Shown here in pieces: positions 38,166 through 58,938 of a stretch of 64,000 bases of DNA. Position 1 is the first letter of the stretch. Each line of letters opens with the position of its first letter. The position numbers and the translations under genes were made by a program. The stretch is from Bacteroidetes bacterium GWF2_38_335 (lineage in GTDB: Bacteria > Bacteroidota > Bacteroidia > Bacteroidales > GWF2-38-335): the NCBI GenBank assembly GCA_001769535.1, contig MEOH01000019.1, positions 65,787-129,786 of the forward strand, read 5' to 3'. The notes beneath the pieces were generated by a model. It did not search any database, was not told the origin of the DNA, and saw only the letters and a list, made by a program, of their open reading frames with translations.

Positions 38166-38508
38166 GGTTGATGGGTTGATAGGTTGATAGGTGGAAGGGT
38201 GGTATGAGGTATGAGGTATGATGTATCATGTATCATGTATGAGGTATTTTCAACCCATAACCCATAACCTATAACTCATAACCCATAACCTCCCATCCAT
38301 TTCCGCCGGAATAGTATTTTTTGGTTCTAATAAGTAAACGGCCGGCGGTTTTGTTCATATTTTTTATTACCCCGGCCGTTAGCCGGGGCTGAATTTAGCT
38401 GGCCTTTCAGGCCGTTAGTTCATCAGGATTTAAGAACATTAACCCATCACTTATAACCCATCACTCATAACCCATAACTCATAACCTATAACTCATAACT
38501 CATAACCT
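38166..38508. repeat. composite structured repeat, copy A: heptamer arrays flanking a ~150-nt three-hairpin core
   Basis: The element runs in this order. First, GGTTGAT-type units (38166-38189), GGTATGA/CATGTAT units (38200-38246) and ATAACCC-type units (38252-38291). Then the core, with hairpins ccgccgg...ccggcgg (38303-38348), ccccggc-cgtta-gccgggg (38370-38388) and ggcct-ttc-aggcc (38401-38413). Last, ATAACCC/ATAACTC units (38441-38508). It is the inverted counterpart of 58939-59256. Confidence 0.85.
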
Positions 38509-41500
38509 ACTCAATCAAAACAAAAGCCGCCCAAAAATAGGGATCATATTTTTTTCGCATTTCATTTTGAGTTTCATTAAATGATTTGCGTATGTCTTTT
38601 GATTTCAGAAGTTTTGTATAAAAAGTTGTCATGAATTCTTCGGTTTCCTTGTCGGGTACCTGCCATAAACTCATGATAAGGAATTTTGCTCCGGTCATTT
38701 TAAAAGCACGCTGCAGTCCGTAAACACCTTCGCTGCCTTTGATATCTCCCAATCCTGTTTCGCAAGCAGAAAGTACTACCAGTTTTGTTTTCCCAAGATC
38801 CATATTTGAAACTTCCAGAGCGGTAAGAACACCGTCTTCACCCTCAATTTTCTCCTTGTTTGTAACATCGTTTGCTCTTGCAAGAGCCAGACCTGAGCGC
38901 ATGAGCGGATTATTGTTTTCGGTGAAATTGTAAATCAAACTTCTGGAATTACTGCCCCTGAATGCAACTTCTTCTCCGGTTGTTTCAATATTCAGGTCAT
39001 TTGAGGCGATGCCATCCTGAGCTAAAACTTCGGATGGCGAGGGGAAAAAGAAGCCATGTGTGGCGATGTGAATGATACCCGGAGCATTTTCACCACTCAT
39101 CGCTTTGATGTTTTCCTCACTGGCTTGCAAACCGGAAAATTCCGAAGACAAACATTTATTTGTGCTAAAAATTTTATTAATGTTATCGGCTTCATTTTTA
39201 GTTCCTTCAAGATATGTCCATGCTTCATTTTCAGTCTTTTCATTGGTGAACTGAGCTCCGCCGAAAATATTGATTTTCAAATCATCCTGTTTTAGCAGAT
39301 CAGACTTTTTATCAGCAATCAAAGCAGTAGAAGAAACCGAGTTTAGTTCAAATCTGTTTAATATACTGATTCCCTTTTGATCAGTGATGCCTGCAAATGA
39401 AACTTTATGAAGCAATCCTGATGGTGAATAAAATATTTTATTGATGCCATTCAAAGCAGAATCCATAGGATTCCATAATGTTTCATAAAGGGCAGTATTT
39501 CCGGATCTTTCGCTTCCGTAAACAGTGAAAATGTATTGCTGGTCATTTGGTGCAGTTTTTCCGATAATTTTTTCAAGCTCAGCAGCTTCAAATAAACTGA
39601 CGATTATGGGAAACTCACTGTCCTGTCTGATAATCATTGCAAAATAGTTATCAGAAAACTGATTGTTTTCAACCATTCCGTAATGCGAAAATTCAATGGA
39701 TGCTTCGCCAACACCAAGATTCTTCTTAATTTCCTGCCAGTCTGAACTGAAAATATCCATTTCATTTTGAATTTCCACCGATTTTTGAACAAGCTCTTTT
39801 TCAAGATTGTTAATGGATTCTTCAATTTCGGTAATGCTCTCGAAACGCGATGATTCGGGCAAAGAATAAAGTTTTGCGAGTTTTTGTTTTTCACCCACCC
39901 AATGATTATATTTTTCAATTAATACCGGGTCTTTGCTGCCCAAAATTTTCTCTTTCATTTTTCCGGTAGATTTCAGGAGAATTCCTTTGTTGATCATCTC
40001 TGAATTGTATGCATACACCGAGACCGAAGGATTTGTTTTTTTTGTTTTCATTGCAAACGAACAGTACAGATCATAGTAATGACTGACCGTTTTAAGAAAA
40101 TTGAATTTTTCCTGTTCTGTTAGAAAGGAGAAGTTTTCCCTGATAGCTTTATAGTTCAGATCGAGAGCTTTTTGATAGCATTTTTCGGCTTCAGCAAAAT
40201 TGCCTTTGCGCTCAAGAATATAAGCCAGACTTACCAAAACTTCGGAACATTCGGGATTATTTTCACCAAAAGATTTCTGATCAAGTTCAAGGGCTTTTTT
40301 GCAGTACATTTCAGCTTCATCATATTGAGCTTTTGCCGAATAAACCATGGAAATATTATGGTAAGCTACTGAAAGGTCTGGATAATTTTCGCCAAATATT
40401 TTCTTTTCCAAATCAATGGCTTTTAACAGATTGATTTCAGCTTTATCATATTGGCCTGTATTTCGGTAAAATTCCCCGAAATTGTTGAGATGGAGGGCAT
40501 AATCGGGATGATTTGTACCCAATATCACACTATCTATTTTAAGAGCACCATAAAGGTACTCTTCTGCTTTTGAGGCATATTGGTTTACCTTGTTGATGTC
40601 ATCCGAAAATAATGCTTTTGAAAGATATAATGATCCCAGATTGTTGAGCGTCGTTGAAATATTTAGGTTGTTTTCTCCGAAAAGCAATTTGTATTTTTCA
40701 TAGGCAGACAGATAATATTTTTCAGCTTTATCGTAATTACCTGTTTCATAGTAAAATGCACCTAAGCTTATTAATGATGAGGCGTAATTTGGATGATCGG
40801 TTCCCATGCTTTCCTTTAAGATATTTTCAGATTTCAACAAATATTCCTCGGCGACTTTATTATTGCCCTTTTTAAGCATTACATTGGCCAGATTGGTAAT
40901 AATACTAACATTATCAGGGTGGTCTTCACCATAAGATGCGATCTGTATTTTCAATGATTTTTCAAGTTCATCCTCTGCCTTTTCATATTCGCCCGATTCA
41001 AGAAAATAATTTCCATAGTTGTTTAGAAATACTGAAAATTGCGGATGCATATCACCATAAAGTTTTTCATAAATCAACCTGCATTTTTCATAGGTTATAC
41101 CTGCTAACTGATAGTTTCCCATATAGGAATACAAAGCAGCCAGATTGATAAGTGAAGTGGCATAATTTGCATGTTTTTCGCCCACAGTTGATTTATGAAT
41201 TTCGAGAGCTTTTAGCAACAAAGTTTCTGCCTCGGGATATTTGCCCAGGGCAATTTTTACCTGTGCCAGTCCGGAAAGCGCAGTAGCATAATCAGTATGT
41301 TTTTCGCCAAGAATCTGTTTTTGAAGTTCACAAACTTTTTCGTATTTCTGTTCCGCTTCAGTGTATCTGCCCAATTGTTCATATACTCCGGCAATATTGC
41401 TCAGTGTCCCTGCATAGGCATTGTATTTTTCGCCATAAAGTTTTTTCTGGTTTTCAGCGACTTGATTAAAAAGTTCCAGAGCTTTTTCATATTTGCCGTT

Positions 41501-42601: not shown

Positions 42602-42690
42602 AGTCCATATTTGATGTAAAGATATGGAAAAATGTTTGTGTATGTATTCATTGGGTTATCCCAATTACTAATCGAAAAGTATTACTGTTT

Positions 42691-42880: not shown

Positions 42881-42935
42881 ATCGCCCTTAAAAACATTTT
42901 TAAATGTGAAATAATAATTTCCAAACTCTTTTTTC

Positions 42936-42943
42936 TAACTTTG
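42936..42943 (+). promoter_or_regulatory. candidate -7 box (TAACTTTG)
   Basis: Matches TAnnTTTG, 18 nt upstream of the ATG at 42961. Confidence 0.35.
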
Positions 42944-42960: not shown

Positions 42961-43575
42961 ATGAGAGGATTTTTATTATTTTTTTTACTCTTGTCCATTA
43001 TTGGAAAATCCCAGGAACCGGTAATATCCTGCTCATTCGAAAAAATGAACGTGGTTTACATCGGCATCCCAAACCCCGTGACCATTGCCGCCAGTGGTTA
43101 CCAATGTGAGGAACTCACGGTGACCGGAATAAATTGCGAACTGACTTATAAAGAACCCGGAAAATATGATTTGATAACTAAAGGAGGAACTGAAGCTTTT
43201 GTGGTGGTGATGGCTGGAGGGGATACATTGGGGGTGGAAAAGTATAGGATAAGGCGAATTCCTGATCCCAATAAATTTTTTAGTAGAAATTGGTATGATT
43301 GCAGGTCTTGTATATCAGGGTCGTTTAAAGCAAATTATGATCATTATCCTTATTTAGATGTTGAATTTAAAGTTGTTAAAGTTATCTTTTTTTATCCTGA
43401 TCCAATTACTAATGAGATGTTGTCAATTGAAAGTGTTGGGGATAAATTAAATGAACAGGCAATTGCTGCATTGAATAAAACAAAAATTGGTCAAACAATT
43501 TGTGTTGAAATATATTGCATTGGTCCTGATAATGAGTTAAGAAAAGTTAATGTCGGGTGCATAGAATTATGGTGA
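42961..43575 (+). CDS. small exported protein resembling the C-terminal domains of GldM
   Basis: Signal peptide. KMNVVYIGIPNPVTIAASG..., ...YRIRRIPDP and ...GDKLNEQAIAALNKTKIGQTICVEIYCIGPDN mirror the motif order I recall for the GldM C-terminal region. No TM helix or GldM N-terminal part. Confidence 0.55.
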   Translation: MRGFLLFFLLLSIIGKSQEPVISCSFEKMNVVYIGIPNPVTIAASGYQCEELTVTGINCELTYKEPGKYDLITKGGTEAFVVVMAGGDTLGVEKYRIRRIPDPNKFFSRNWYDCRSCISGSFKANYDHYPYLDVEFKVVKVIFFYPDPITNEMLSIESVGDKLNEQAIAALNKTKIGQTICVEIYCIGPDNELRKVNVGCIELW

Positions 43576-43602: not shown

Positions 43603-44265
43603 ATGAAATATTTATTTTCAATAATATTAATTGTTAATACCATTTTATTGTTTTCGCAGAGCGATCATTTTGTAACAGTCTCCCTTGATAAAATGAATAT
43701 AGCATATATTGGCTTTCCTAATCCAATAAAAATATCTGTAGAAGGTTATAAAAATGAGGATTTAACAGTTGCATTAAATTCATATAATTCACCTGATACT
43801 ATAATACCAATTGAAGATGGAAAATATGATCTAAGAGTTACCGGAGGAAAAGAAGCATTCATAATAATCAAATCAAATAGTGATACTCTCGGGAAAATAA
43901 AAGTTTTAATTCAAAGAATCCCTGATCCAAAACCCAACTATTCATTAATGAAAGATGAAATTCCAACTGAAAATGTAATTTCAAAAAATGACTTATTAAA
44001 TGATTTTTATTTAACTACTGAACCTGAACAGGTTTTTGTTTACGACTGCGAATTCATAATAACCAACTACATCTTCAGCCACACCGACACCGCCAAAAAC
44101 ATAAAGAAAACCATTGAATGTGAAGGAAACCGGCTAAACAAAAAAATCAAAAAATACATTTCAAAGCTGCCTGCCGGTTCCGAAATTTCATTCACGATAT
44201 TTTGTGTTGGTCCGGATAATGAGAAAAGGAAATTAGAACCGCTGGTGTTACAGCTAAAATCCTAA
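43603..44265 (+). CDS. small exported GldM C-terminal-like protein (paralog)
   Basis: KMNIAYIGFPNPIKISVEG..., ...VLIQRIPDP and ...GNRLNKKIKKYISKLPAGSEISFTIFCVGPDN. Tandem paralog of 42961-43575. Confidence 0.55.
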   Translation: MKYLFSIILIVNTILLFSQSDHFVTVSLDKMNIAYIGFPNPIKISVEGYKNEDLTVALNSYNSPDTIIPIEDGKYDLRVTGGKEAFIIIKSNSDTLGKIKVLIQRIPDPKPNYSLMKDEIPTENVISKNDLLNDFYLTTEPEQVFVYDCEFIITNYIFSHTDTAKNIKKTIECEGNRLNKKIKKYISKLPAGSEISFTIFCVGPDNEKRKLEPLVLQLKS

Positions 44266-44515: not shown

Positions 44516-44965
44516 CTAATTTTTTAATATTCGTTTAACAAGAAATGACAAATAATCGACATCTTTTTCATATTGCACCCAACCATCTTTTACTTCACCA
44601 TAAATTTCAAAGTCATTTAAAACTTCATCAAGATATTTTGAAATACCCATTCTATATAATCTTGTCCTTGCCTACGTGCTGCCTGTTGCATAAATATATG
44701 CATCCGGATATTTGTCAGTAAAAGCATAAACAGAAGCTATTACTGTTGCAAGTACTTTTTCGCTATCACCGTTATTGGAAATAATCATATCATCTATCTG
44801 TCCTGTATTTTTGTCTTTATCTCCAAAAGCCAAATTGTAAACATCCTTTAAGTTAGTTGGAGTATATTGAATAATTTTTGAAATTTTCCCACGAGAGCCT
44901 TCGCTAATGAACTCAAAAGTCCATAATTTTTCGCTTGATTTTAATTGATAACGTGGCAATTTCAT
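44516..44965 (-). pseudogene. ~149-codon gene interrupted by one in-frame TAG
   Basis: The 97-aa ORF ends ...YIYATGST at TAG (44672-44674). The same frame continues ARTRLYRMGISKYLDEVLNDFEIYGEVKDGWVQYEKDVDYLSFLVKRILKN to TAG 44516-44518. The joint GST-x-ARTRLYxMGI looks like one conserved motif from a small Bacteroidota protein family. I recall it being catalogued as a DUF, but I am not certain. Confidence 0.5.
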
Positions 44966-48200: not shown

Positions 48201-48765
48201 CACCAAAATGGATTATTATTTTGGAACCAGTGATATTGATTTCAACAATCCCTCGGTTAAAGGAATGGAATACGCAGCCATTGAAGCTTTGCTTGACGGT
48301 TTAAAAGCCCTGAAAAAACTATTATTTATGGATACCTGTCACAGCGGTGAACTTGATAAGGATGAGGTTGAAACGGCATCTCAAGAAACAGCTGAGACCG
48401 GAGATATATCTTTCAGAAATGCAGGAGCCGGTGTAAGAAAAAAAGAAGGGTTCGGAATGAAAAATACCAGTGACCTGATGAAGGAATTATTTACCGATCT
48501 CAGAAAGGGAACAGGTTCGACAGTTATTTCGAGTGCCGGAGGCGCAGAGTTTGCCATGGAAAGCGGTGAGTGGAAAAATGGATTGTTTACCTTTTGTCTC
48601 AAAGAAGCATTGACTTCAAAAAAAGCTGATTTGAATAACGATGGCAGCATCACAATTTCCGAATTGCAGCAATATGTTCAGGAAAGAGTTGTTGAGCTTT
48701 CAAAGGGAAAGCAGCAGCCAACTTCAAGGATTGAAAACCTGATTCTGGATTTTAATATCTGGTAG
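45271..48765 (+). CDS. exported WD40-repeat protein with C-terminal caspase (Peptidase C14) domain
   Basis: Signal peptide MKRIIFLFFLSFFVWVSYSQ. Many WD40 units (GHTDLVTALCFSPDGKFLASGSKDNLVILWD, HDAKVTALAFDQKSGLLASAGDDGKIKVWD). Caspase domain (LYIVTIGASVYSD...VVILFIAGHGLLD...LLFMDTCHSGE). Confidence 0.9.
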   Translation: MKRIIFLFFLSFFVWVSYSQNPVLVPQEGFLGTVTNIAYSQDGRYLASCGKGDPAIKIWEVATNKMCGKLEGHTDLVTALCFSPDGKFLASGSKDNLVILWDLTKWELSKKYSGHLKEITAVCFSGDGNFVVSASNDKTVKVWNISEVKEKFTLTEHKNDVTVVAVSSDNKYLVSGSDDNSLIVWDFQSGTLLKKIKAQKKRITSLAFLPNNTAFLSSSMDKTIKLWDVVSGTAVKEYAAASGIVNMSVESSGKSFFTVDKENVIQVWDVGLGSVIATINKKEDEKAKDDEEPIKALACNPNGLYFATAGYSKNIFGKISSDENAIKIWDVKSNTLFKTINGEVFPVHNLCFSPAGNILASMTKNRLFVWDVVNAEYIAGIEFAEPQEKKSGGLLSKTADALEGVKYTYRIEFTQNGEYLVVKSPDDNTGLKVYHFSDNQLKLNNVIMCNNLGYKPANATSLYNPLSKRKDYPVHDFALFPDSNYVAVGTTGDTAVVIFNLLNGSIFKMLETPTEKNIKSQSSTTGQFNKDKVIAITFSPDGKYLAGAFESGPIYVWETESWNLLFVQLDNILSSGLSNTTYIGNAFFEFSKDGKTLYYGRREDVWVFSYADSGPWPFKKIKGGSDITTLLSTEKTLAGKLDRSVCLYENESSKIMGSHDAKVTALAFDQKSGLLASAGDDGKIKVWDPVTGKEVFSVLNSQSGDYVFVTPDHYYKASKKGLDLVTYRVGKEIYPFEQFDLQYNRPGIILERAKNPDLDKITAYHSAYAKRLKKLKMDEKMFGSDMQIPQLSILNRNEIPYTWTADTLKVKVKCADAKYQLERLNIFINNVPIYGVGGLSLKESKSQTDERAIQIPMAAGKNIIRFSCHNQKGAESLMETIELTYEPKEKKKPDLYIVTIGASVYSDKRFNLTYASKDAKDMAELFKTSPVYGNVFTKTLTDNEVTKVNIQKVKAFLEKAGRDDVVILFIAGHGLLDTKMDYYFGTSDIDFNNPSVKGMEYAAIEALLDGLKALKKLLFMDTCHSGELDKDEVETASQETAETGDISFRNAGAGVRKKEGFGMKNTSDLMKELFTDLRKGTGSTVISSAGGAEFAMESGEWKNGLFTFCLKEALTSKKADLNNDGSITISELQQYVQERVVELSKGKQQPTSRIENLILDFNIW

Positions 48766-49241: not shown

Positions 49242-50105
49242 ATGAAAAAGACAATATATACCATTAGCTTAATATTGATATCAGTAATTACGGCTATATC
49301 TCAGGACATTACTTTCACAGAAAGCATGGACAAAGCTTTTGAAAGAGCAAAAAAAGAAAATAAAATAATATTTGTTGATGCCTATGCCACCTGGTGTGGC
49401 CCGTGTAAATACATGGCTAAAAATGTTTTTACTGTTGACTCGGTGGCAAAATTTTATAACACAAATTTCGTGTGCCTGAAAATTGATGTGGACATTGAAG
49501 AAGGGACTAAATTCATGAAAAACTATCCCGTTGCTGCCATGCCCACTTTTTTCTTTATTAAACCTACCGGAGAGGTGGTAAAAAAGGTTATGGGCGGAAT
49601 GGAAGCCGATAAATTCTATAATCTTGGAAAAGATGTGATCTATCCCGAACAGGCGATGGTTTATATCATGGGACAAAAATACAAATCGGGTAACCGCGAT
49701 AAAAGTTTTTTGGCCGAATATGCCCTGGAACTTCCCGAAGAGGATTCTTTGTTGAAAATTGTGATCAGTGAATATTTTAAAGATCAGCCGGTTTCATGTA
49801 TTGACTCAATCGATGGGTTTGCCGTTTTTTCATTGTGGACTGTAGGCATTGAATCGGAATTTGCCAAATATTTTGCCGGAAAATACGATGATTTTCTGCT
49901 TAGCTATGGAAAATATGCCCAAAACAAGCTAAACAGTATTATTATGGCAGAAATAGAATCAGCAACAGCTTTGAAAAATAAGTCGAGACTCGAAAACCTG
50001 TATAATTATCTCCAGCCTGTTTACCGCGATGACGAAGCAGGTTTTGCTGATATAAAAAGATTGATCGAACAAGCATACGAACAGGCTGTTAATAAGGAAA
50101 TGTAG
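49242..50105 (+). CDS. exported thioredoxin-fold protein (CGPC active site) with helical C-terminal extension
   Basis: Signal peptide (ISLILISVITAISQ) and a thioredoxin motif (FVDAYATWCGPCKYMAKNVF). Confidence 0.8.
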   Translation: MKKTIYTISLILISVITAISQDITFTESMDKAFERAKKENKIIFVDAYATWCGPCKYMAKNVFTVDSVAKFYNTNFVCLKIDVDIEEGTKFMKNYPVAAMPTFFFIKPTGEVVKKVMGGMEADKFYNLGKDVIYPEQAMVYIMGQKYKSGNRDKSFLAEYALELPEEDSLLKIVISEYFKDQPVSCIDSIDGFAVFSLWTVGIESEFAKYFAGKYDDFLLSYGKYAQNKLNSIIMAEIESATALKNKSRLENLYNYLQPVYRDDEAGFADIKRLIEQAYEQAVNKEM

Positions 50106-50165
50106 TTCCATTCCGAAAGAATTCCCGCATTATTATTCTTTTATGGTGCCAGATAATTATTCCGA

Positions 50166-50682
50166 CCGCAGGTCAGTTGCAATGTTATTTTTCCTGACTT
50201 AGTCAATGCCTAATTTTCACTTATTTATTATTTAAGACTTTGTTGTTTTTATTGTTTTTCTGTGAAGAAGTCAGCAAGGGCAAAGCCCTGGGATTGTAAG
50301 CGCGTAGGGTGAAATGAAATGCAACCCTATGCGTAATAAAAAATCCTATTTGAGATAAATGTGGAAAATATTTTTTTACACAGGGTTGCACTATGTTTCA
50401 CCCAGTGGTGATACAAATCGGTCTTTCAGACCTTTAAATTGTGTGGAGCAAGGGCAAAGCCCTGGGATTGTAAGCGCGTGGAGAAGACTGAAATGTAACT
50501 TTATATTTAAAAAGCTATTATATACTCAGGACTGCAATGTATTTTTCCCTTTTGTCTCGCTAGTGCACCTCCCATTTCCTAATTTAGTTTTATATATATT
50601 TGTTATTTAAGGCCTTGGTATTTTTAATGTTTTTGTGTGACGAAGTCAGGAGACCACAGGTCAGTTGCAATGGTTATTTTTG
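50166..50682. repeat. repeat-dense non-coding region (nested direct and inverted repeats)
   Basis: Direct pairs are X (50166-50192 / 50654-50682, caggtcagttgcaatg), Y (50229-50274 / 50604-50649, tatttaag...gaagtcag) and Z (50273-50305 / 50447-50479, agcaagggcaaagccctgggattgtaagcgcgt). There is an inverted pair, 50306-50328 / 50382-50403 (agggtgaaa..gcaaccct), and a hairpin ggtct-ttc-agacc at 50420-50432. Confidence 0.7.
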
Positions 50683-50739
50683 AATTAGTAAGTAGCTATT
50701 GAATCTTACAACCTTCTTTTGAACATTCAAAAAAAAACC

Positions 50740-50747
50740 TAACTTTG
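50740..50747 (+). promoter_or_regulatory. candidate -7 box (TAACTTTG) for the phosphatase-CHAT-CHAT operon
   Basis: Matches TAnnTTTG, 20 nt upstream of the ATG at 50768. Confidence 0.35.
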
Positions 50748-50767
50748 AATAGAAAAATTAATTGGAA

Positions 50768-53167
50768 ATGCACCGGATTTTATCTTTATTATTTTTGTTA
50801 GTTCTTTTTGCCATCGCTTCAGGCAAAAGCGAAAATATTGATTCTCTCTGGCGTGTATATGATAAGGCCGTTCATGATACTTTAAAAATTAAAATCCTGA
50901 ACGACGAAATAGGATCCTATTATCAGAGAAATAATCCCGACTCAGCAATTATCTGTTATCAGATGGCCTATGATATGGCATCAAAAGCTCTCGAAAAGAC
51001 TTCTAAAAAAGATGTCAGAGAAGCTCTTGAAATGGAAAAAATACTTGCAAACGCTTATTTGGGAGTGGTTAATTATGAAACAGGAAACAGTGAAAAATCC
51101 CTTAAATATTTATCCCTTGCAGTAAAAAATTCAAGAGACCTTTTAAAAACTATAAGCAATAAATATCAGGGAAAAATAAAGGTTATAATTGCCAGATCTT
51201 TAAATCAAATCGGAATGTCATATAAAGAACTTGGCAAATATGACAAGGCAATTGAAACGTATCAAAAATCCATTAAAGAAGCTGAAAAAATCAATGACAA
51301 ACTGATTATTTCTGATGTTAGAAGCAATATAGGATTGCTGCACCTGGATATGGGTGAGGTAATGAAGGCCATTGAATACTTTGAATTTGCAATTAAAATA
51401 AAGGAGAGCATTAAAGACATGCCCGGCTTGTCTAACTGTTATATCAATATGGGTATTGCACACCTCAGGATCAGCTATAATGACGATGGAAAACTTTCTG
51501 AAGAGGGTGTAAGGAAAGAACAGGATCTTGCACTTGATTTTTTTAAAAAATCCATCGAAATTGCTGAAAAAGTTGGAATGCAGTCAAATATTTCAAGTTT
51601 ATATGTCAATATGGGCATTGTCTATGGTAGCAGAAATGAATTTGAAAAATCTGAAGAATATTTCCTTAAAGCACTGAACCTGAATATTGAAATAGATTTC
51701 AAAGACGGCATTGCTGCCTGTTACGGTAACCTGGCCGCATTGAGTCAGATCATGGCCGAGTCGGTTGCACTTACCGAGGGACAAAAGAAAAAGTATCTTG
51801 AAAAAACTATCAATTACGGATTGCAATGCATGAAATATGCAAAGGAAATAAATTCTCTTGAACGTCAGATTTTTGCCTGTAGCACCCTTAAAACTGCCTA
51901 TGCTTCTGTAAATAATTATAAAGAGGCACTGTTTTATGCTAATGAATATCTGGAGTTGAATAAAAAAATATTCTCCGAGGATAAAACAAAAGCCATTGCA
52001 GATGCCGAGAAAAAATTCGAAACCGAAAAAAATAAACTGCTGATTGATAAACTTAATAAAGAAAAACAGCTTCAGGACTCCCAACTCAAGCTTGAACAGG
52101 AAGCATCGGAACAACAACGACTGATAAATTATTTCATCATCGCCGGTCTGATTCTTATATCCCTTTTTGCTTTTTTTATTGTTCAGCGACTCCGTATTAC
52201 CCGTAAACAAAAGAAAGTCATCGAAGTGCAAAAGGCTGTTGTGGATGAAAAAAATGTAATCCTTAACCAGCAAAACGAGGAAATAAGGGCGCAACGCGAC
52301 GAAATCGAGGCGCAGCGCGATGAAATTACCGCCCAACGCGATTTGGTTACCAATCAGAAGGAGCGCATTGAAGTCCAGAAAAAAGAAATCACCGATTCCA
52401 TTGTGTATGCAAAATATATTCAAACCGCCGTTTTACCAACCGGTGATTATGCAAAGGACATTCTGGGAGAGCACTTTATTTACTTTAATCCCAAAGATAT
52501 TGTTTCAGGCGATTTTTATTGGGCTACTAAAGTCGATAAATGGCTTGTTTTTACTGTTGCTGATTGCACCGGACATGGTGTTCCCGGAGCATTCATGAGC
52601 ATGCTGGGTGTTTCGTTCCTCAATGAAATTGTCAGGGAAAAAGAAGTAACCCTGGCAAATGAAATACTTGACCGGCTCAGAATGAAAATTATTGATGCCC
52701 TTAAACAAAAATCTCTCGGAGAAACCGACAACGGTTCGAAAAAAGCCGTATCAAGAATGAGAGATGGAATGGACATAGCCGTTTGCGTACTTAATATTGA
52801 TTCTTTACAACTTCAGTTTTCGGGAGCAAATAACGGTCTGTTTGTCGTTAAAACCGACAAATCCGTTTTTGATATTCCCGGCGATAAACAACCGGTAGCC
52901 ATTTATGAAAAAATGGTGCCTTTTACCAATCATGTGCTCGATTTGCAAACAGGCGACACCATTTACCTGAACACTGACGGTTTTACTGATCAGTTCGGGG
53001 GAGCAGAGAATAAAAAATTTATGACAAAAAGAATGAAGGAAATGTTTAAGGAAATTTCTTCACGCCCCATGTCCGAACAGCTTGTTTTTGTGAATAGTAC
53101 TTTTGAGAACTGGAAGGGAATTCGTGACCAGATTGATGATGTTACCGTTCTGGGTATTAGAATCTGA
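50768..53167 (+). CDS. TPR-sensor, single-TM, SpoIIE/PP2C-type phosphatase
   Basis: Signal peptide, about 8 TPR units and a TM helix (YFIIAGLILISLFAFFIV). Five heptads follow (AQRDEIE AQRDEIT AQRDLVT NQKERIE VQKKEIT). PP2C motifs are present (VSGDFYW...VADCTGHGVPGAFMSMLG...DGMDI...TDGFTDQFG...DDVTVLGIRI). The ORF track begins at TTG 50762, and the ATG at 50768 is equally possible. Confidence 0.85.
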   Translation: MHRILSLLFLLVLFAIASGKSENIDSLWRVYDKAVHDTLKIKILNDEIGSYYQRNNPDSAIICYQMAYDMASKALEKTSKKDVREALEMEKILANAYLGVVNYETGNSEKSLKYLSLAVKNSRDLLKTISNKYQGKIKVIIARSLNQIGMSYKELGKYDKAIETYQKSIKEAEKINDKLIISDVRSNIGLLHLDMGEVMKAIEYFEFAIKIKESIKDMPGLSNCYINMGIAHLRISYNDDGKLSEEGVRKEQDLALDFFKKSIEIAEKVGMQSNISSLYVNMGIVYGSRNEFEKSEEYFLKALNLNIEIDFKDGIAACYGNLAALSQIMAESVALTEGQKKKYLEKTINYGLQCMKYAKEINSLERQIFACSTLKTAYASVNNYKEALFYANEYLELNKKIFSEDKTKAIADAEKKFETEKNKLLIDKLNKEKQLQDSQLKLEQEASEQQRLINYFIIAGLILISLFAFFIVQRLRITRKQKKVIEVQKAVVDEKNVILNQQNEEIRAQRDEIEAQRDEITAQRDLVTNQKERIEVQKKEITDSIVYAKYIQTAVLPTGDYAKDILGEHFIYFNPKDIVSGDFYWATKVDKWLVFTVADCTGHGVPGAFMSMLGVSFLNEIVREKEVTLANEILDRLRMKIIDALKQKSLGETDNGSKKAVSRMRDGMDIAVCVLNIDSLQLQFSGANNGLFVVKTDKSVFDIPGDKQPVAIYEKMVPFTNHVLDLQTGDTIYLNTDGFTDQFGGAENKKFMTKRMKEMFKEISSRPMSEQLVFVNSTFENWKGIRDQIDDVTVLGIRI

Positions 53168-53179
53168 TAACCTGAAACT

Positions 53180-56086
53180 ATGAAAAAGCTAATATTATTT
53201 TTCCTGACTTTTATTATTACAGGACTTGTTTTTTCGCAAAGCAATTCCATTGTTGATTCCTTGTGGCGCAATTATAAAAATGCCTCCCATGATTCGGTGC
53301 GAATTGAAATTCTCATTGCAGATCTGGGCTATACCTTTGAAGGAATTAATCCGGATTCTGCTCTGATACTTTACAATAAAGCAATTGAGCTTGCTGATAA
53401 AAATATTGAATCTGCCCGAAAATCATCCGACAAAAAATCTGAACTGTTTTTTCTTGAAAAAAAAGCTGTGGCATTAAGATATTCAGGTATTGTTTACCGG
53501 ACTTTAAGCGATTATGAAACGGCTCTTTTTAATTACAAAAGATCAATAAACATCTACAAAGAACTGATACTTGAAAGCAGTGCGGGTAAACGCGAAGAAT
53601 ACAATGTCAATATTTCCGGAACCTATAATAATATTGGCTCCATTTACCGGAATCAGGGTGTTAATGACAAAGCAACTTTATACCTGCTGAAAGCTATAGC
53701 CAATTTTGAAATTACGGTTGATTCAGAAAACCAATCTGTGGCCAAAATGAGCGGATATGCTCTCGCCGGCGCATACAACAACGTGGCACTCATTTATAAC
53801 AATCAGGGAATATATGAAAAGGCAATAAAATATTTCGAAAAATCTCTGGAGATAAGAAAAAAAATGAGCGATGTTTATGGTATTGCCCAATCCTTAAGCA
53901 ATATGGCCATTTCAACTTTCCGGATGGCTGTGCTTGTCACAACTCCTGAATTAAAGACTGCCAGACTTAATGAATCGCTCCAGATGTATTTTACTGCCCT
54001 TTCATGCTATGATTCACTATTATCAGATCAGGCAAATATTAAAAATTTCAGATTGTTAAAACTTTCGAAAGCTGATTGTTTTGGAAATATTGGATTGTTA
54101 TACAAAACTAAAGGTGATGGTGATAACGCTCTTAAATATTTCAATGAAGCTATTAAAATCAGAGAGGAGTTGGGCGATAAAGTTGGTATCTGTGGCGAAA
54201 AATCAAATCTGGCTTCGTTGTATATCTCTATTCATGACCGGCTTAACCTTAACGAAAGCAATCTCATCAGAGGATATAAATATGCAGAGGAAGCACTTAA
54301 ACTTTCTGAAGAAATCGGACTAAAAGCCGAAATGAAAAGTGCGGTAAGAAATATGGCTATGATTTTGCAGGGATTGGGAAATTTTGAAAAAGCCCGGGAA
54401 TATTATTTTTCATTGAGTTCAATGAATTTTTCTGATATACTTACAAACTTTTCATTTATTACCGAAAAGGAAAAGGAACTGTTTTTCAGTATGGTATCCT
54501 CAGATTTTAACTTCTTCTATAATTTTGCACTGAGAAATCTGGGTTATAAACCCGATATTGCAGGTGATGTGTTTGATAATGTCATTCGTTCAAAGGGGCT
54601 GCTGCTCAAATCGTCCACAGCCATGCGTGCTGCCATTTTAAATAGTGGCGATGAAGTTTTAAAAAAAGATTATTATGATTGGACAGCCATTAAAAAATCA
54701 ATCATTCAAAACTATACCCTTGAACCTGAAAAAAGGGATAAAAATCTTGATAAATTGATTGAAAAGGCCGACAGTATTGAAAAAGTATTGGCTAAAAAAT
54801 CCTTTGAGTTCAGCGATTTCAATAATATTCAGAAAATTTCCTGGACAGATGTTAAAAAAAGTCTGAAGCCCGGTGAAGCCGCAATTGAGTTCGTTCATTT
54901 TAAATATGACCCTGTTAAAATAGTCGATTTGGAAGAAGTGAAATATTGTGCGCTTGTGCTTACAAGTGATTCGGAATATCCGGTTATGATTCCACTTTGC
55001 AATCAAAAACAGCTTCAGGATATACTGGGAATAGACGCTGAAAATGACATCAATTATATCAACAATATTTACGGTAAAAAGAATAATACCAGCCGACAAC
55101 TGTATAAACTGATTTGGAAGCCAATTGAAAGCAAACTAACCGGAATAAAAAGGGTGTATGTGTCGCCGAGCGGACTGTTACATAAAATTTCCCTTGCTGC
55201 GATTGCCGATGAAAATGGAATCTTTTTAAGCGATAAATTAGATTTAAGAATCAAAAGCAACACAGGAAATATTGCTTTAGAATCAACAGTTTCAGATGTT
55301 TTGTTCAGCGATGCGGAAATAACTGCGGCCGTTTTTGGCGGAATAGATTACAACCTCAAGGATTCGGTCCGGAAAATTGTTGAGTGGGAATATCTGGATG
55401 GTACAAAAAGAGAAAGTGAAAATATTACTAATTTGCTGACAGGTCAAAAAATAAACGTGAAATATTTTTCCGATAAATCAGCCACCGAAGAGCAATTCAA
55501 GATTATGGCTGCAAACTCTGATCTGTTGCATATTGCCACCCATGGATTCTTTTTTCCATCCCCAGAACAGTTAAGATTGGAAAGTGATACTGCCAATAAA
55601 ATCACTGAAGAAAAAGGTGATGTTGTGTTCAGGGGTGGCGCCAGGGGTTTTGGCGTTGCAGGGTTTGTTGAAAATGACAATCCGCTGATGAGGTCCGGAC
55701 TTGTGTTTGCCGGAGCAAATGAGGTTTGGAATGCAACTGAATCGGGCGAAAATGAAGATGGTGTTCTTACTGCCCAGGAGGTTATAAATATTGACATGCG
55801 CAAAACTTCCATGGTTGTTTTATCGGCATGTGAAACCGGACTTGGTGAAATTGTGGACTGCGAAGGGGTGTATGGATTACAACGGGCATTCAAAATGGCC
55901 GGTGTGAAATACATCGTAATGAGTCTGTGGCAGGTGCCCGATAAAGAAACCGTCGAGTTTATGACTCTTTTTTATTCCCGACTTTTAAAATTGAAAGACA
56001 TACAGCAGGCTTTTTCCGAAACCCAAAAGGAAATGCGAAAAAAATATGACCCGTATTTCTGGGGGGCTTTTGTCTTAGTTGAATAA
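53180..56086 (+). CDS. exported TPR-repeat CHAT-domain protein
   Basis: Signal peptide MKKLILFFLTFIITGLVFSQ, then TPRs. Conserved middle region (NFSFITEKEKELFF). CHAT His (LLHIATHGFFFPSP) and Cys (VVLSACETGLGE), and the tail KYDPYFWGAFVLVE. Starts 12 nt after the phosphatase gene. Confidence 0.9.
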   Translation: MKKLILFFLTFIITGLVFSQSNSIVDSLWRNYKNASHDSVRIEILIADLGYTFEGINPDSALILYNKAIELADKNIESARKSSDKKSELFFLEKKAVALRYSGIVYRTLSDYETALFNYKRSINIYKELILESSAGKREEYNVNISGTYNNIGSIYRNQGVNDKATLYLLKAIANFEITVDSENQSVAKMSGYALAGAYNNVALIYNNQGIYEKAIKYFEKSLEIRKKMSDVYGIAQSLSNMAISTFRMAVLVTTPELKTARLNESLQMYFTALSCYDSLLSDQANIKNFRLLKLSKADCFGNIGLLYKTKGDGDNALKYFNEAIKIREELGDKVGICGEKSNLASLYISIHDRLNLNESNLIRGYKYAEEALKLSEEIGLKAEMKSAVRNMAMILQGLGNFEKAREYYFSLSSMNFSDILTNFSFITEKEKELFFSMVSSDFNFFYNFALRNLGYKPDIAGDVFDNVIRSKGLLLKSSTAMRAAILNSGDEVLKKDYYDWTAIKKSIIQNYTLEPEKRDKNLDKLIEKADSIEKVLAKKSFEFSDFNNIQKISWTDVKKSLKPGEAAIEFVHFKYDPVKIVDLEEVKYCALVLTSDSEYPVMIPLCNQKQLQDILGIDAENDINYINNIYGKKNNTSRQLYKLIWKPIESKLTGIKRVYVSPSGLLHKISLAAIADENGIFLSDKLDLRIKSNTGNIALESTVSDVLFSDAEITAAVFGGIDYNLKDSVRKIVEWEYLDGTKRESENITNLLTGQKINVKYFSDKSATEEQFKIMAANSDLLHIATHGFFFPSPEQLRLESDTANKITEEKGDVVFRGGARGFGVAGFVENDNPLMRSGLVFAGANEVWNATESGENEDGVLTAQEVINIDMRKTSMVVLSACETGLGEIVDCEGVYGLQRAFKMAGVKYIVMSLWQVPDKETVEFMTLFYSRLLKLKDIQQAFSETQKEMRKKYDPYFWGAFVLVE

Positions 56087-56121
56087 GTATGTTCTCCGGA
56101 TTTATCTAATAAAATTTTAGT

Positions 56122-58938
56122 ATGAAGAATAAATATTTATTTCTGTTGATTTTACTGTCAGTCCAGTATTTTTCTTTTGCTCAGGAATGGCTTGAACAAG
56201 ACAATCTCCGGCAAAAACACCTTGAAAATGCACAATATGATTCAGCAGCAATTTTTGCAATAAATGTAAAGAATATTATAGAAAAGGAGTTTGGAACAAA
56301 AGACACGCTATATGGACAGGCATTAAACAATGAAGGATTTATTTACCTTTCGACCGGGGAATATGAAAAAGCCGAACCGCTTTTTGAAAAAGCAGTAAAG
56401 TGTTTTGAGGATAATAAAACTGAAAATGCCAAGGCCTACTCCTTTGCCCTTAGCAATATTGGAACCTTATATAACTGGACAAGCCGCTATGAAAAAGCCG
56501 AGAATGTTTTTCTTAAAGTGTTGGAAATCAGAAAAAAAACAGGAGAAAAAACACCTGAATATGCAACAGCTTTAAATAATCTCGGAAATATTTACAAGGA
56601 TGTTGGAAGATACAAAGAGTCAGAGGAATATTATTTAAAAGCCATAGAACTTAGAAAGGAATTATTCGGGGAAAAGGATTCTGAATATGGTGTGGCAATT
56701 AATAATCTGGCAATTTTATATGTCAATATGGGACAGTATGATAAAGGTGCAGAAATACTCCTTAAAGCAAGAGATATTTTTAAGGAAATTCCGGGAGAAG
56801 GTCAGGTAAAATATCTTACTGTCACTAACAATCTTGGAGCCATTTACTGGTCAATGGGTGATTTTATCAAAGCTGAACCCATGTTGGTTGATGTTGAGAT
56901 AAAATTAAAGGAAATAGTGGGTGAGGAGCATCCTAACCATATTACAGCAATTAACAACCTTGCAGTGCTTTATTCACATATCAATAAACTTGATCTGGCG
57001 ATAGAGTATAACCTTAAAGCACTTGCCTTGAGAGAAAAAACAATGGGAAAAACTAATTACGATTATAGTATTTCCCTAAATAATCTGGGCGCAAATTATT
57101 TGGATTTTTCCTTCGTTTGTGATACTCCATCCTGCAAAACTAAAGCCATACAAATGTCTAGGGATTATTATCTGGAAGCCGAACAAATCAGATTTAAATT
57201 GTTTGGACCGAAGCATCCTGATTATGACCTTATTCTGAAAAATCTGGCCAACACTTACCTCTATGAAGATGATTTGGCCGGGGCTGAAAAAATATATCTG
57301 AAATCAATGGACATTCTGAATTATAATATTCAGGAGAATTTTAGTTTTCTCTCTGAAAAAGAGAAGGAGCAGTTTTTTAAGATGAAATATGGTGACATTA
57401 AATCATTCTACTCATTTTCATATAAGTACAAGGATCAAAAACCAGAAATATCCACGCATGTTTACGACAATGTTTTAAAAAATAAGGGATTATTGCTTAA
57501 ATCATCAACTGCGATGCGTACGGCCATTGCTTCAAGTAATGATACCAGTTTGGTCAATGCATTTGACAAATGGATTGATCTTAAAAAGAAAATTGCCAAA
57601 CAATATTCTATCGCTGTTGATAAGCGCGATACAGATCCTGTATTGCTTGAAGAAGAAGCCAACCTTCTTGAAAAGGAGTTGGTTAAAAAGTCATCAATAA
57701 TTAGTGACTTTGATAAAAACAAAAATGTTACCTGGAAGGAAATCCGTAAATCATTAAAACCGGGTGAAGCAGCCATTGAGTTTATTCATTTTAATTTCTA
57801 TGATAAGCGGTGGACAGACTCGATCTTGTATTTGGCACTGATTGTAAAATCCGACAGCAAATATCCCGAAATGATTACCTTGTTTGAGGAAAAAACCCTG
57901 ACAGGCATTTTGAAGGAATTCGATGGTAATAATCTTAAATATGTCAATGGACTTTATGGAACAAATTCTGATCTGAAGGATGATCTTTATAATATTATTT
58001 GGAAGCCAATGGAAAACGCCTTAAAGGGAATATCAACAGTTTATTTGTCTCCTACCGGGTTGCTTCACAAAATATCCTTTGCATCTCTAAACAGTAGTAA
58101 AAATGTTTTGTTGTGCGATGTGATTGACATCAGAACGCAATCAAGTACAGCGAAAGTTGCAGTTCCCGAAATATTTTCGTTTGAAAAAAATATGACAGCA
58201 AGTATTTTTGGAGGAATAGATTATTCTGGTGAAACAGGCGAAACTGTATGGCAGTATCTTGAAGGAACCAAAACGGAAAGTGAAAAAATTCACAGTTTTC
58301 TTAAAGAAAAAAATATTAAAGTTTCAATGCTTTCGGAAAAAAATGCCACCGAATCAGAATTTAAGAAGATGGCGGCAAACAATAATTTATTGCACATTGC
58401 AACACATGGGTTTTTCTACCCTGATCCAAAAAATGTTAATAAAACAGATTCGTTGACACAGGAAACCGGTTCTGTTATTTTCAGGGGAGGAGAAAGAGGA
58501 GCCGGGGTTGAAAATTTTGTAAAAAATGAAAATCCATTGATGAGATCTGGTCTTGTATTTGCCGGAGCCAATGAAGTTTGGAGTGAGAAAAAAATAAGTA
58601 ATCTTGATGATGGAGTGCTTACTGCACAGGAAGTGTCGAATATTAATATGGGAAAAACCGGTTTGGTAGTACTGTCTGCATGTGAAACCGGACTGGGAGA
58701 TATTTCTGTAAATGACGGGGTTTATGGTTTACAGCGTGCTTTTAAAATTGCCGGCACAAAATTTATTGTCATGAGTTTATGGCAGGTGCCTGATAAGGAA
58801 ACTGAAGAATTTATGATTTCGTTTTATTCAAATTTCTTTAAATTAAAGAATATCAGAGAAGCTTTTTCCGAAACCCAAAAGGAAATGCGCAAAAAGTACG
58901 ACCCATATTTTTGGGGAGCGTTTGTACTTATTGAGTAG
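56122..58938 (+). CDS. exported TPR-repeat CHAT-domain protein
   Basis: Signal peptide MKNKYLFLLILLSVQYFSFAQ and KLC-type TPRs (YATALNNLGNIYKDVGRYKESEEYY). NFSFLSEKEKEQFF region. CHAT His (LLHIATHGFFYPDP) and Cys (VVLSACETGLGD), and the tail KYDPYFWGAFVLIE. Confidence 0.9.
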   Translation: MKNKYLFLLILLSVQYFSFAQEWLEQDNLRQKHLENAQYDSAAIFAINVKNIIEKEFGTKDTLYGQALNNEGFIYLSTGEYEKAEPLFEKAVKCFEDNKTENAKAYSFALSNIGTLYNWTSRYEKAENVFLKVLEIRKKTGEKTPEYATALNNLGNIYKDVGRYKESEEYYLKAIELRKELFGEKDSEYGVAINNLAILYVNMGQYDKGAEILLKARDIFKEIPGEGQVKYLTVTNNLGAIYWSMGDFIKAEPMLVDVEIKLKEIVGEEHPNHITAINNLAVLYSHINKLDLAIEYNLKALALREKTMGKTNYDYSISLNNLGANYLDFSFVCDTPSCKTKAIQMSRDYYLEAEQIRFKLFGPKHPDYDLILKNLANTYLYEDDLAGAEKIYLKSMDILNYNIQENFSFLSEKEKEQFFKMKYGDIKSFYSFSYKYKDQKPEISTHVYDNVLKNKGLLLKSSTAMRTAIASSNDTSLVNAFDKWIDLKKKIAKQYSIAVDKRDTDPVLLEEEANLLEKELVKKSSIISDFDKNKNVTWKEIRKSLKPGEAAIEFIHFNFYDKRWTDSILYLALIVKSDSKYPEMITLFEEKTLTGILKEFDGNNLKYVNGLYGTNSDLKDDLYNIIWKPMENALKGISTVYLSPTGLLHKISFASLNSSKNVLLCDVIDIRTQSSTAKVAVPEIFSFEKNMTASIFGGIDYSGETGETVWQYLEGTKTESEKIHSFLKEKNIKVSMLSEKNATESEFKKMAANNNLLHIATHGFFYPDPKNVNKTDSLTQETGSVIFRGGERGAGVENFVKNENPLMRSGLVFAGANEVWSEKKISNLDDGVLTAQEVSNINMGKTGLVVLSACETGLGDISVNDGVYGLQRAFKIAGTKFIVMSLWQVPDKETEEFMISFYSNFFKLKNIREAFSETQKEMRKKYDPYFWGAFVLIE

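Follow-up and report, generated by a model that had tools for sequence, protein, structure and literature searches.

Predicted exported CHAT and caspase-like peptidases, sensor phosphatases and the small protein p265 in a Bacteroidales genome: parts of a possible periplasmic signalling module

Predicted exported peptidases and sensor phosphatases of the island

The DNA analysed here is a stretch of 64,000 nucleotides from the metagenome-assembled genome of Bacteroidetes bacterium GWF2_38_335 (contig MEOH01000019.1, positions 65,787 to 129,786), referred to as the window in the following. It carries the genes of four predicted cysteine peptidases, three of the TPR-CHAT type (CHAT-A, CHAT-B and CHAT-C) and one WD40-caspase, together with two sensor phosphatases and a small protein designated p265 (Table 1). 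An earlier reading of the letters alone, here called the original prediction, had described an island of the four peptidase genes with interleaved envelope genes at 38507-58938.

Table 1. Features of the island and its flanks in window coordinates (TM, transmembrane; aa, amino acids)
Feature	Position	Strand	Domains and basis
p265, predicted exported protein, 265 aa	31343-32140	plus	signal peptide; no Pfam match
Sensor phosphatase, Y_Y_Y type	32179-35487	plus	signal peptide, periplasmic beta-propeller/Y_Y_Y, TM helix at about aa 764-782, cytoplasmic SpoIIE/PP2C
CHAT-A, predicted TPR-CHAT cysteine peptidase, 1364 aa	38507-42601	minus	PF12770 (E 2.5e-56) and TPR
Exported GldM-D3/D4-like protein, first	42961-43575	plus	Pfam, NCBIfam
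Exported GldM-D3/D4-like protein, second	43603-44265	plus	Pfam, NCBIfam
WD40-Peptidase_C14 protein (caspase/orthocaspase-like), 1164 aa	45271-48765	plus	PF00656 and WD40
Thioredoxin-fold protein	49242-50105	plus	Pfam; WCGPC, signal peptide, C-terminal half without assigned function
Sensor phosphatase, TPR type	50768-53167	plus	signal peptide, periplasmic TPR, TM helix at aa 453-471, cytoplasmic SpoIIE/PP2C
CHAT-B, predicted TPR-CHAT peptidase, 968 aa	53180-56086	plus	PF12770 (E 1.9e-56) and TPR
CHAT-C, predicted TPR-CHAT peptidase, 938 aa	56122-58938	plus	PF12770 (E 5.3e-51) and TPR
Reg_prop/Y_Y_Y-TM histidine kinase	59418-62531	plus	Pfam and TM helix; directly downstream of CHAT-C

The CHAT profile PF12770 scored 191.7, 192.1 and 174.2 bits for CHAT-A, CHAT-B and CHAT-C, all above the cutoff of 24, and in all three the part preceding the CHAT domain is extensively matched by TPR profiles of Pfam. 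The fourth peptidase comprises WD40 repeats in its N-terminal part, and its C-terminal part, scanned alone, matched PF00656 with an E value of 5.8e-15 and 56.1 bits (cutoff 21.4). The catalytic dyad consists of His1182 and Cys1280 in CHAT-A, the histidine being the second one of the motif HIATHG, which begins at residue 1178. The corresponding residues are His788 and Cys884 in CHAT-B and His762 and Cys854 in CHAT-C, while the WD40-caspase carries His973 in AGHG and Cys1023 in DTCHSG. HIATHG and SACETG were found in all three CHAT proteins by translation of the codon positions, and in an alignment of 24 TPR-CHAT sequences both histidines of HIATHG and the cysteine of SACETG are invariant. With their intact dyads, the four peptidases are assigned to the clan-CD cysteine enzymes and would act as proteases. 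The CHAT paralogs are 38-41% identical to one another and arranged in tandem.

Compared to the EACC1-associated caspases (NF047832), the WD40-caspase reached 77.8 bits against a cutoff of 140, and an EACC1 or NTPase neighbour was not found. At the C-terminal end of its caspase domain (48619-48681, about aa 1117-1137) lies a loop resembling the Ca2+-binding loop of EF-hands, DLNNDGSITISEL. The match to Pfam EF-hand_1 (E 3e-5) is slightly below the cutoff, and some homologs are annotated likewise. This hints at a possible control of the predicted exported caspase by Ca2+.

The N-termini of the four peptidases read MKTILTLTVSLLLLSGSGFS/Q, MKKLILFFLTFIITGLVFS/Q, MKNKYLFLLILLSVQYFSFA/Q and MKRIIFLFFLSFFVWVSYS/Q, where the slash marks the predicted cleavage site (FS/Q, FS/Q, FA/Q and YS/Q). 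In each of them a basic n-region leads into 12-15 hydrophobic residues, and glutamine comes next after a small residue, which fits the Q-rule of the Bacteroidetes, i.e. glutamine after the cleavage site in substrates of signal peptidase I (PMC5837995). In a Kyte-Doolittle scan, none of the four peptidases showed an internal TM helix; for the two phosphatases and the histidine kinase, the scan did recover the one that was expected. An arrangement suggested by the TPR-TM-PP2C layout, with the CHAT domain placed in the cytoplasm by an internal TM helix, was ruled out, since no such helix was detected. All four peptidases are thus strongly predicted to be extracytoplasmic, i.e. located in the periplasm.

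A signal-peptide-like N-terminus was present in 98 of the 114 TPR-CHAT homologs that start with methionine, and 79 of these 98 show [ASGCT]Q after the hydrophobic core. In the alignment of 24 sequences, the glutamine at the predicted cleavage site, which corresponds to residue 20 of CHAT-B, does not vary. Besides Bacteroidota, the exported form occurs in Acidobacteriota, Planctomycetota and Cyanobacteria. Judging from these homologs, export is the rule for the TPR-CHAT family in Bacteroidota and no peculiarity of the island.

The WD40-caspase differs in this respect. Its full-length orthologs in four of the compared loci, which are labelled with L-numbers in the following (L014, L015, L091 and L133), retain the signal peptide, but the best 120 matches to its C-terminal 464 residues are nearly all without one, including complete genes on long contigs. 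Since a signal peptide is missing from most of the proteins closest to the C-terminal module, the exported WD40-caspase appears to be a minority variant.

Both phosphatases comprise intact GDFYW and ADCTGHG motifs and scored 64.2 and 64.1 bits with the SpoIIE/PP2C profile PF07228 (cutoff 25). The gene of the TPR type is the first of a run of three, followed by CHAT-B and CHAT-C with gaps of 12 and 35 bp. Its periplasmic TPR region is homologous to the N-terminal 420 residues of CHAT-B (25% identity, E 6e-25), and the same TPR module was also found on SpoIIE and histidine-kinase sensors. The histidine kinase downstream of CHAT-C shows a weak similarity to the sensor domain of the Y_Y_Y-type phosphatase (21% identity, E 3e-11) and sits where other genomes carry p265 and the Y_Y_Y-PP2C gene; it may belong with the other genes.

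As to its description of the island, the original prediction was confirmed. The three TPR-CHAT genes and the WD40-caspase gene lie at the coordinates it gave, in agreement with open reading frames (ORFs) and Pfam profiles, and all eight codon positions that it assigned to the dyads translate to H or C within the motifs it named. The proposed CHAT, Peptidase_C14, SpoIIE, TPR and WD40 domains were all supported by Pfam. The Sec signal peptides that it saw on all four peptidases were recovered as predicted Sec-type features ending in S or A before glutamine, without an internal TM helix. The interleaved TPR-TM-PP2C phosphatase was confirmed by the SpoIIE and TPR matches, the TM helix and the intact motifs. 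Some of its statements had to be given up. It treated the four proteases alike, although they are not equivalent, the closest relatives of the caspase by C-terminal sequence being mostly without a signal peptide. It also held that export set the island apart and knew of no characterised example; however, 98 of the 114 homologs are signal-peptide-like, a survey of 2012 already described that some of the prokaryotic metacaspases carry a TM helix or a signal peptide at the N-terminus (PMC3501461), and the periplasmic TPR-CHAT protein DdvA has been characterised (PMC11506125).

Linkage in other genomes and the protein p265

For the comparison of gene neighbourhoods, 79 loci from other species encoding TPR-CHAT relatives were used, whose six-frame ORFs were searched with domain-level queries from the window. 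A match within 10 kb of a CHAT gene was obtained in 7 of the 79 loci for PP2C and in 6 for the caspase, compared to 2 for the thioredoxin and none for either the GldM_C-like proteins or DUF6934. The matches are concentrated in the closest relatives of the window CHATs, and 19 of the 79 loci contain 2 to 6 CHAT genes. Due to their low counts, the thioredoxin and the GldM_C-like proteins are regarded as local passengers, and together with DUF6934 they were ruled out as conserved partners. The FGE-sulfatase and GH97 genes of the window, used as queries against the p265 loci, did not appear in the listed top matches of those ORFs that had a hit, and they were likewise not retained as partners.

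In the loci L006 to L010, whose CHAT proteins are 39-43% identical to CHAT-B, a TPR-TM-PP2C gene lies beside the CHAT genes in five of five cases. Most of them keep the order of the window, PP2C followed by CHAT with short gaps, and L009 shows it twice (PP2C-CHAT-PP2C-CHAT); PP2C before CHAT was observed in L006, L009, L095 and L096. WD40-caspase orthologs (E 1e-87 to 1e-93) abut a CHAT gene in L014 and L015, which are metagenome-assembled genomes (MAGs) of a Bacteroidia and an Ignavibacteriaceae member, respectively. In L014 an ortholog of the CHAT-A type is located immediately downstream of the caspase ortholog.

A further recurrent gene emerged from L006, L008 and L085, where an exported protein of about 261-265 residues without a Pfam match is encoded between the last CHAT gene and a gene for a Y_Y_Y-TM-SpoIIE protein of about 1100 residues; L085 and L086 both have one or more CHAT genes, with or without this protein, followed by Y_Y_Y-SpoIIE. 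The counterpart in the window is p265. A scan of metagenomes with the p265 alignment yielded 51 loci, 46 of them with close homologs. Among the close homologs with at least 500 bp of downstream sequence, a sensor PP2C gene follows p265 directly in 32 of 36 loci. Of the 12 p265 loci in which both flanks are informative, 9 have a CHAT gene as immediate neighbour, placed upstream in the same orientation or convergently behind the phosphatase, and 11 have a CHAT or caspase gene within 10 kb. The full layout, one or more TPR-PP2C genes, one or more CHAT genes, p265 and Y_Y_Y-PP2C, is present in L006, L095 and L096.

In other loci a C14 caspase takes the place of the CHAT protein. L114 comprises caspase, p265 and Y_Y_Y-PP2C, and L091 and L141 are similar. 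WD40-caspase orthologs bearing a signal peptide adjoin p265 and Y_Y_Y sensors in L091, L114, L138, L140 and L141, and distant p265-like proteins of 205 residues adjoin signal-peptide-bearing caspases in the gut-metagenome contigs L133-L137. Based on these gene orders, CHAT and C14 caspase are interchangeable beside p265 (L114, L091, L141, L133-137). In L140 (15025-18108) a Y_Y_Y ectodomain homologous to that of the window phosphatase (E 1e-113) is joined to a guanylate/adenylate-cyclase output instead of PP2C, and the gene adjoins p265 and a WD40-caspase. Since the ectodomain is kept while the output is a cyclase, the periplasmic sensor domain can be regarded as the conserved element, which points to a putative interaction site on the periplasmic side.

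The CHAT proteins flanking p265 elsewhere resemble CHAT-B and CHAT-C more than CHAT-A, CHAT-C being the most similar paralog type. CHAT-A and the Y_Y_Y-PP2C gene point towards each other, an orientation also seen in L092, L099, L100, L105, L106 and L111; in the window a GH97 gene intervenes. Thus, the window holds all these parts in two blocks, 31343-35487 and 50768-58938, with CHAT-A, the WD40-caspase and unrelated genes between them.

The original prediction had proposed that conservation of the neighbourhood be looked for in related genomes. The association of CHAT or caspase genes with sensor PP2C genes does recur, but that with the thioredoxin and GldM_C-like genes does not. The two GldM_C-like proteins and the CGPC thioredoxin named among the interleaved envelope proteins exist as described but are not counted as members of the module considered below. 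Moreover, the interval given for the island left out the most tightly linked partners, p265 and the Y_Y_Y-TM-PP2C gene.

Some of the compared loci showed further gene associations. In L091 (14237-16045), L140 (13110-14927) and L141 (3971-5757), a pair of small genes, which is not present in the window, directly precedes the WD40-caspase gene. The products of about 245 and 352 residues are exported or lipoprotein-like, the latter with a weak VWA match. L015 (4814-21231) is a single-strand run of a Peptidase_C25 gene (gingipain family), two TPR-CHAT genes, the WD40-caspase, a CHASE2 membrane protein and, following these, a p265 homolog (E 9e-59), so that three different clan-CD peptidase families are clustered outside the Bacteroidota. 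The ddvA operon reportedly also contains a C25-type peptidase. In L012 (1439-13347) three TPR-CHAT genes are interleaved with two genes for AAA_14/DUF4143 ATPases, a neighbourhood that may represent a separate, NTPase-associated use of the exported CHAT family.

The AF2 model of p265 (pLDDT 91.3, pTM 0.84) comprises the signal helix, two beta-sandwich domains and a C-terminal bundle of three helices. Foldseek gave only generic Ig-like matches for it, a search against PDB sequences gave none, and Pfam scans of 49 members pointed to no consistent family. A FecR-like fold of the N-terminal domain, considered because of the motif pattern, was dropped for the same reasons. The family forms 87 clusters at 90% identity, and a profile search retrieved 1119 representatives at 50% identity with E values of at most 1e-3, 306 of them with at most 1e-30. 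Nearly all members are stand-alone proteins of about 265 residues, and every name given in the sources is 'hypothetical protein'.

The best-conserved stretch of p265, P91...N-I-S-S-R99-[GAS]-G, lies between the two beta-sandwich domains and is the least confident region of the mature model, where the pLDDT averages 65 over residues 91-100 and 80 over residues 101-110. Arg99, the only invariant arginine of the protein, is present in 49 of 49 sequences, and the motif S-[S/T/A]-R is retained in the Ignavibacterial member and in those distant members that are linked to caspases. Separase cuts after arginine (PMC11506125), and orthocaspases, according to a passage of PMC6426788, cut after positively charged residues. 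In sequence and model, the loop around the invariant arginine would accordingly resemble a site cut by a clan-CD enzyme with Arg specificity; the same appearance would be expected of a binding motif. Compared to the original prediction, which saw no obvious substrate, p265 with its invariant Ser-[Ser/Thr/Ala]-Arg in a flexible loop is a candidate substrate or adaptor. By its gene linkage it also appears as the most specific marker of the module.

Known systems, a possible signalling module and its alternatives

Foldseek searches with the AF2 model of CHAT-B (pLDDT 83.3) returned DdvA, Csx29 and separase as top matches with a probability of 1.0. The best match was the transmembrane anti-sigma factor DdvA (8RW5/8ROT) with an E value of 3.2e-12. 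Csx29, the TPR-CHAT protein of the type III-E Craspase, reached a TM-score of up to 0.54 when normalised to the target, and human separase was matched with an E value of 1.5e-10; overall, the Csx29 and separase matches span E values from 1e-8 to 4e-12. The global TM-scores normalised to the query are low (0.22-0.39) due to the different multidomain arrangement. A sequence search of the PDB with CHAT-B returned TPR proteins only, whereas DdvA, Csx29 and separase were reached by the structure search.

DdvA of Myxococcus contains a periplasmic domain of about 900 residues, a TPR-CHAT with a His/Cys dyad whose structure was determined by cryo-EM (PMC11506125). Its authors propose that CHAT autoproteolysis, induced by a signal, is the site-1 step before cleavage by RseP and release of a sigma factor of the extracytoplasmic function (ECF) type; a CBASS/CRISPR island is under the control of DdvA, for which the sensing of a phage protein has been proposed (PMC11506125). 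The window CHATs share with it the predicted periplasmic TPR-CHAT with His/Cys dyad, and DdvA itself stands for signalling across the inner membrane by a proposed signal-activated protease. In contrast, DdvA has a zinc anti-sigma domain in the cytoplasm, to which the TPR-CHAT is joined by a TM helix, and an ECF sigma factor is its partner; its active site has no three-helix motif. The TPR-CHATs of the window are free, soluble proteins with a signal peptide and no TM helix, they have a separate PP2C sensor as membrane partner, and p265 belongs to the unit. Neither an anti-sigma domain nor a TM helix was found in the CHAT proteins, which are thus no anti-sigma factors of the DdvA type. No ECF sigma gene lies between 29 and 64 kb, the only one of the window (15030-15599) being located about 16 kb upstream of p265 with a TPR neighbour of its own.

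Csx29 and separase belong to the same TPR-CHAT fold class and are switched on allosterically by a bound partner, followed by the cut of a specific partner. Unlike the window proteins, they are cytoplasmic or nuclear, carry no signal peptide and are activated by RNA-guided Cas7-11 or under securin/cyclin control. The WD40-caspase corresponds to the WD40 metacaspases and orthocaspases in the fusion of a C14 His/Cys dyad to WD40, the most frequent accessory domain in the survey (PMC3501461), but the window protein and its orthologs in L014, L015 and L091 are predicted to be exported and are linked to CHAT, p265 and sensor genes. The phosphatases have the catalytic motifs of the SpoIIE, RsbU and SiaA type PP2C sensors and the same order of extracytoplasmic sensor, TM helix and cytoplasmic phosphatase, with a partial similarity to SiaA (E 3.5e-52). 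However, the score of 177.8 bits is far from the equivalog cutoff of 700, the sensor domains are TPR or beta-propeller/Y_Y_Y, and SiaBCD, STAS or kinase partners were not found nearby. In line with the original prediction, which had noted the absence of an NTPase, a gasdermin and a cas gene, none of these was detected in the region by Pfam or PADLOC. The same searches revealed no cas7-11, CD-NTase/SAVED or gasdermin gene in the window, and none was seen among the recurrent neighbours. The peptidases are no members of the Craspase, CBASS-CHAT or EACC1 systems, and the PADLOC results for the window were restricted to generic TPR and WD40 matches and a weak caspase match, without a specific defence family.

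In the literature searched, the DdvA paper (PMC11506125) was the only one mentioning a periplasmic TPR-CHAT, and no report linked CHAT or exported clan-CD peptidases with SpoIIE/PP2C sensors. Nor did it contain the triad that is formed by p265 with an exported peptidase and a sensor phosphatase.

Taking these observations together, we see an even chance that the region at about 31.3-58.9 kb encodes parts of a periplasmic signalling module linked to proteolysis. Its components would be the three TPR-CHAT proteins and the WD40-caspase, the two sensor phosphatases in the inner membrane and periplasmic p265, and they would fill three roles: a receptor-protease (TPR-CHAT or WD40-caspase), an adaptor or pro-ligand (p265) and a membrane sensor that reads the result. 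According to the predicted topology, the TPR or beta-propeller/Y_Y_Y sensor domains would face the periplasm and the PP2C domains the cytoplasm. In a first step, the TPR or WD40 array would bind a protein cue in the periplasm and thereby switch on the peptidase, as in other TPR-CHAT enzymes. The peptidase would then cut a periplasmic target, most plausibly p265 at the invariant exposed S-S-R/G loop, or alternatively the periplasmic domain or linker of the sensor itself. Finally, a changed state of the sensor domain would alter the activity of the cytoplasmic PP2C domain, resulting in the dephosphorylation of a partner.

A reading in terms of envelope signalling or regulated proteolysis is favoured because the synteny of sensor PP2C genes with CHAT and caspase genes is conserved. 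The module is further supported by the tight linkage, the interchangeable peptidases, the constant ectodomain with variable output, the TPR shared by CHAT-B and the phosphatase and the precedent of DdvA. Of four independent look-ups from the p265 side, three gave a Y_Y_Y sensor together with a WD40-caspase. The original prediction had arrived at a comparable hypothesis, of which the predicted extracytoplasmic location and the synteny with sensor PP2C genes hold; however, export is not unique to the island, an analogue exists, two of the partners it named are passengers, and the real ones had been missed.

Several observations weigh against the module. The two blocks of the window are split, p265 and Y_Y_Y-PP2C lying 18 kb from CHAT-B and CHAT-C and being separated from CHAT-A by GH97. 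The linkage is limited to one clade of TPR-CHAT genes, as is evident from the low PP2C and caspase counts among the 79 TPR-CHAT loci across Bacteroidota, and since a CHAT neighbour was absent at three of three remote TPR-PP2C homologs, the cassette of TPR-PP2C and CHAT is restricted to a close clade. The fourth of the look-ups from the p265 side gave a lone p265 (L139). An all-against-all clustering of the ORFs from triad loci revealed no STAS, kinase, sigma-factor or other recurrent family, so that no conserved partner of the PP2C domain is encoded nearby. Since the genome is rich in TPR sensors, some of the adjacency could stem from local duplication. As for the precedent, the trigger and the proteolysis of DdvA have not yet been demonstrated, as its authors state (PMC11506125).

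Bacterial caspase-like proteases have been studied almost solely as cytoplasmic effectors of death or defence, while hundreds of Bacteroidota TPR-CHATs and a subset of the WD40-caspases are predicted to be periplasmic and have recurrent partners. The proposed module provides a testable hypothesis for the role of exported CHAT and caspase proteins, with a candidate substrate and a candidate cleavage site, and would be a free-standing counterpart to DdvA, the single characterised periplasmic TPR-CHAT. A more specific version, which we regard as distinctly doubtful, is a periplasmic cascade similar to the extracellular one of Spaetzle and Toll: the peptidases, with diversified TPR or WD40 arrays as receptors, would sense foreign or damaged proteins in the periplasm and cleave p265 as a pro-ligand at the invariant S-S-R/G loop, cleaved p265 would bind the beta-propeller/Y_Y_Y ectodomain, and the PP2C or cyclase domain would be switched. 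If true, bacteria would possess a class of transmembrane signalling that has not been described before and is widespread in Bacteroidota and Ignavibacteria.

Exported clan-CD peptidases are established in Bacteroidota through the gingipain family C25. The four peptidases could accordingly be ordinary proteases for envelope processing, quality control or nutrient acquisition, which are co-regulated with the sensors or merely located beside them without mechanistic coupling. The C25 neighbour in L015, the majority of TPR-CHAT loci without a sensor within 10 kb and the GH97 glycosidase and other envelope genes interspersed in the window would all agree with that. However, degradative enzymes are not normally equipped with TPR or WD40 recognition arrays of 400 to 1000 residues, the adjacency of p265 and sensor is very tight (32 of 36 loci, gaps of tens of bp), and a sensor-type TPR common to CHAT-B and the phosphatase is hard to explain by co-regulation alone. 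We therefore consider this explanation unlikely.

A second alternative differs from the proposed module mainly in its biological purpose. The proteins could be surveillance receptors similar to DdvA, whose repeat arrays sense proteins of phages or competitors in the periplasm, with the PP2C sensors relaying the alarm. DdvA, the top structural match, is the controller of a CBASS/CRISPR island, and tandem expansion of the paralogs with divergent repeat arrays, seen as at least two and up to six CHAT genes in 19 of the 79 loci, would suit such receptors. The CHAT genes interleaved with AAA_14/DUF4143 ATPases in L012 and the combination of C25, two CHATs, caspase and CHASE2 in L015 point in the same direction. 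On the other hand, known defence genes are absent from the window and from the conserved core, PADLOC gave only generic repeat matches, and an ECF sigma or anti-sigma factor, an NTPase or an effector was not found next to the triads. In its GC content the region does not stand out from the rest of the window, and there is no sign of mobility. A surveillance function is thus regarded as rather improbable.

Even less probable, in our view, is that the clustering is a by-product of evolution, in which TPR genes duplicate and shuffle locally and CHAT and PP2C genes become adjacent without a joint function. This would account for the tandem CHAT paralogs with 38-41% identity, the TPR module common to CHAT, SpoIIE and histidine-kinase proteins and the remote TPR-PP2C genes that stand alone. 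It leaves unexplained, however, p265 and the Y_Y_Y-type sensor, both of which have no TPR, the replacement of CHAT by a WD40-caspase at the same position, and the persistence of the arrangement in lineages with protein identities as low as about 35% and as far as the Ignavibacteria. That the hydrophobic N-termini are artefacts of start-codon choice or uncleaved anchors, with catalysis in the cytoplasm as for the CHAT effectors of Craspase and CBASS, would agree with the many homologs of the caspase C-terminal module lacking a signal peptide, but is hardly credible, as the hydrophobic N-terminus with glutamine at +1 is kept in dozens of homologs from different phyla, the caspase orthologs in L014, L015, L091 and L133 retain the signal peptide, and a basic n-region with a single hydrophobic segment puts the remainder outside the cytoplasm, cleaved or not.

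Further genes of the window

The two GldM-like proteins matched GldM_3rd with 37.6 and 35.0 bits, above the cutoff, and GldM_4th below it. They are D3/D4-like only and do not correspond to a full-length GldM/PorM with N-terminal TM helix and domains D1-D4, as TIGR03517 gave 53.7 and 39 bits compared to a cutoff of 180. Judging from their lack of conservation as neighbours, these genes probably lie outside the module. As a speculation, the thioredoxin might keep the catalytic cysteines in the periplasm reduced. Between the GldM_C-like genes and the caspase gene, an ORF of 97 residues (44672-44965, minus strand) matches DUF6934 (E 3.8e-37) only up to position 96 of 145 and is probably the truncated remnant of a gene.

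The spacer between the thioredoxin and the TPR-PP2C gene (50105-50768) contains a tandem repeat with a unit of 174 bp (50273-50446) and a partial second copy, the first 32 nucleotides of the unit recurring at 50447. In another assembly of the same organism (L001), one extra full copy of the unit is present, which means that the copy number varies. Short direct repeats of a similar kind flank the unit. Rfam gave no match for the spacer, and an ORF of 83 residues within the repeat (50359-50610) is probably not a gene.

In divergent orientation to p265, a protein of 590 residues with an FGE-sulfatase domain is encoded at 29447-31219 on the minus strand. In bacteria, metacaspases are often fused to FGE-sulfatase (PMC3501461).

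In the first part of the window, further TPR regulators were found in 10237-12973, 15030-17956 and 19354-21246, comprising a TPR-HisKA_2 kinase with a LytTR response regulator and a TPR-GerE regulator. The ECF sigma gene mentioned above is followed by genes for a TPR protein and a CarboxypepD_reg protein, and three tandem TPR/PD40/OmpA paralogs are located at 2261-9580. Altogether, the genome uses TPR sensor modules very widely.

A cobalamin riboswitch (RF00174, 88.3 bits) lies at 26669-26879 on the minus strand, upstream of a group of genes with the same orientation. This cluster comprises genes for two proteins with a C-terminal sorting domain of the type IX secretion system (T9SS; 25270-26532 and 24280-25266), a TonB-dependent-receptor Plug protein (22297-24276) and a DUF5074 protein (21200-22300), and may represent a locus for B12 uptake with surface components that are T9SS cargo.

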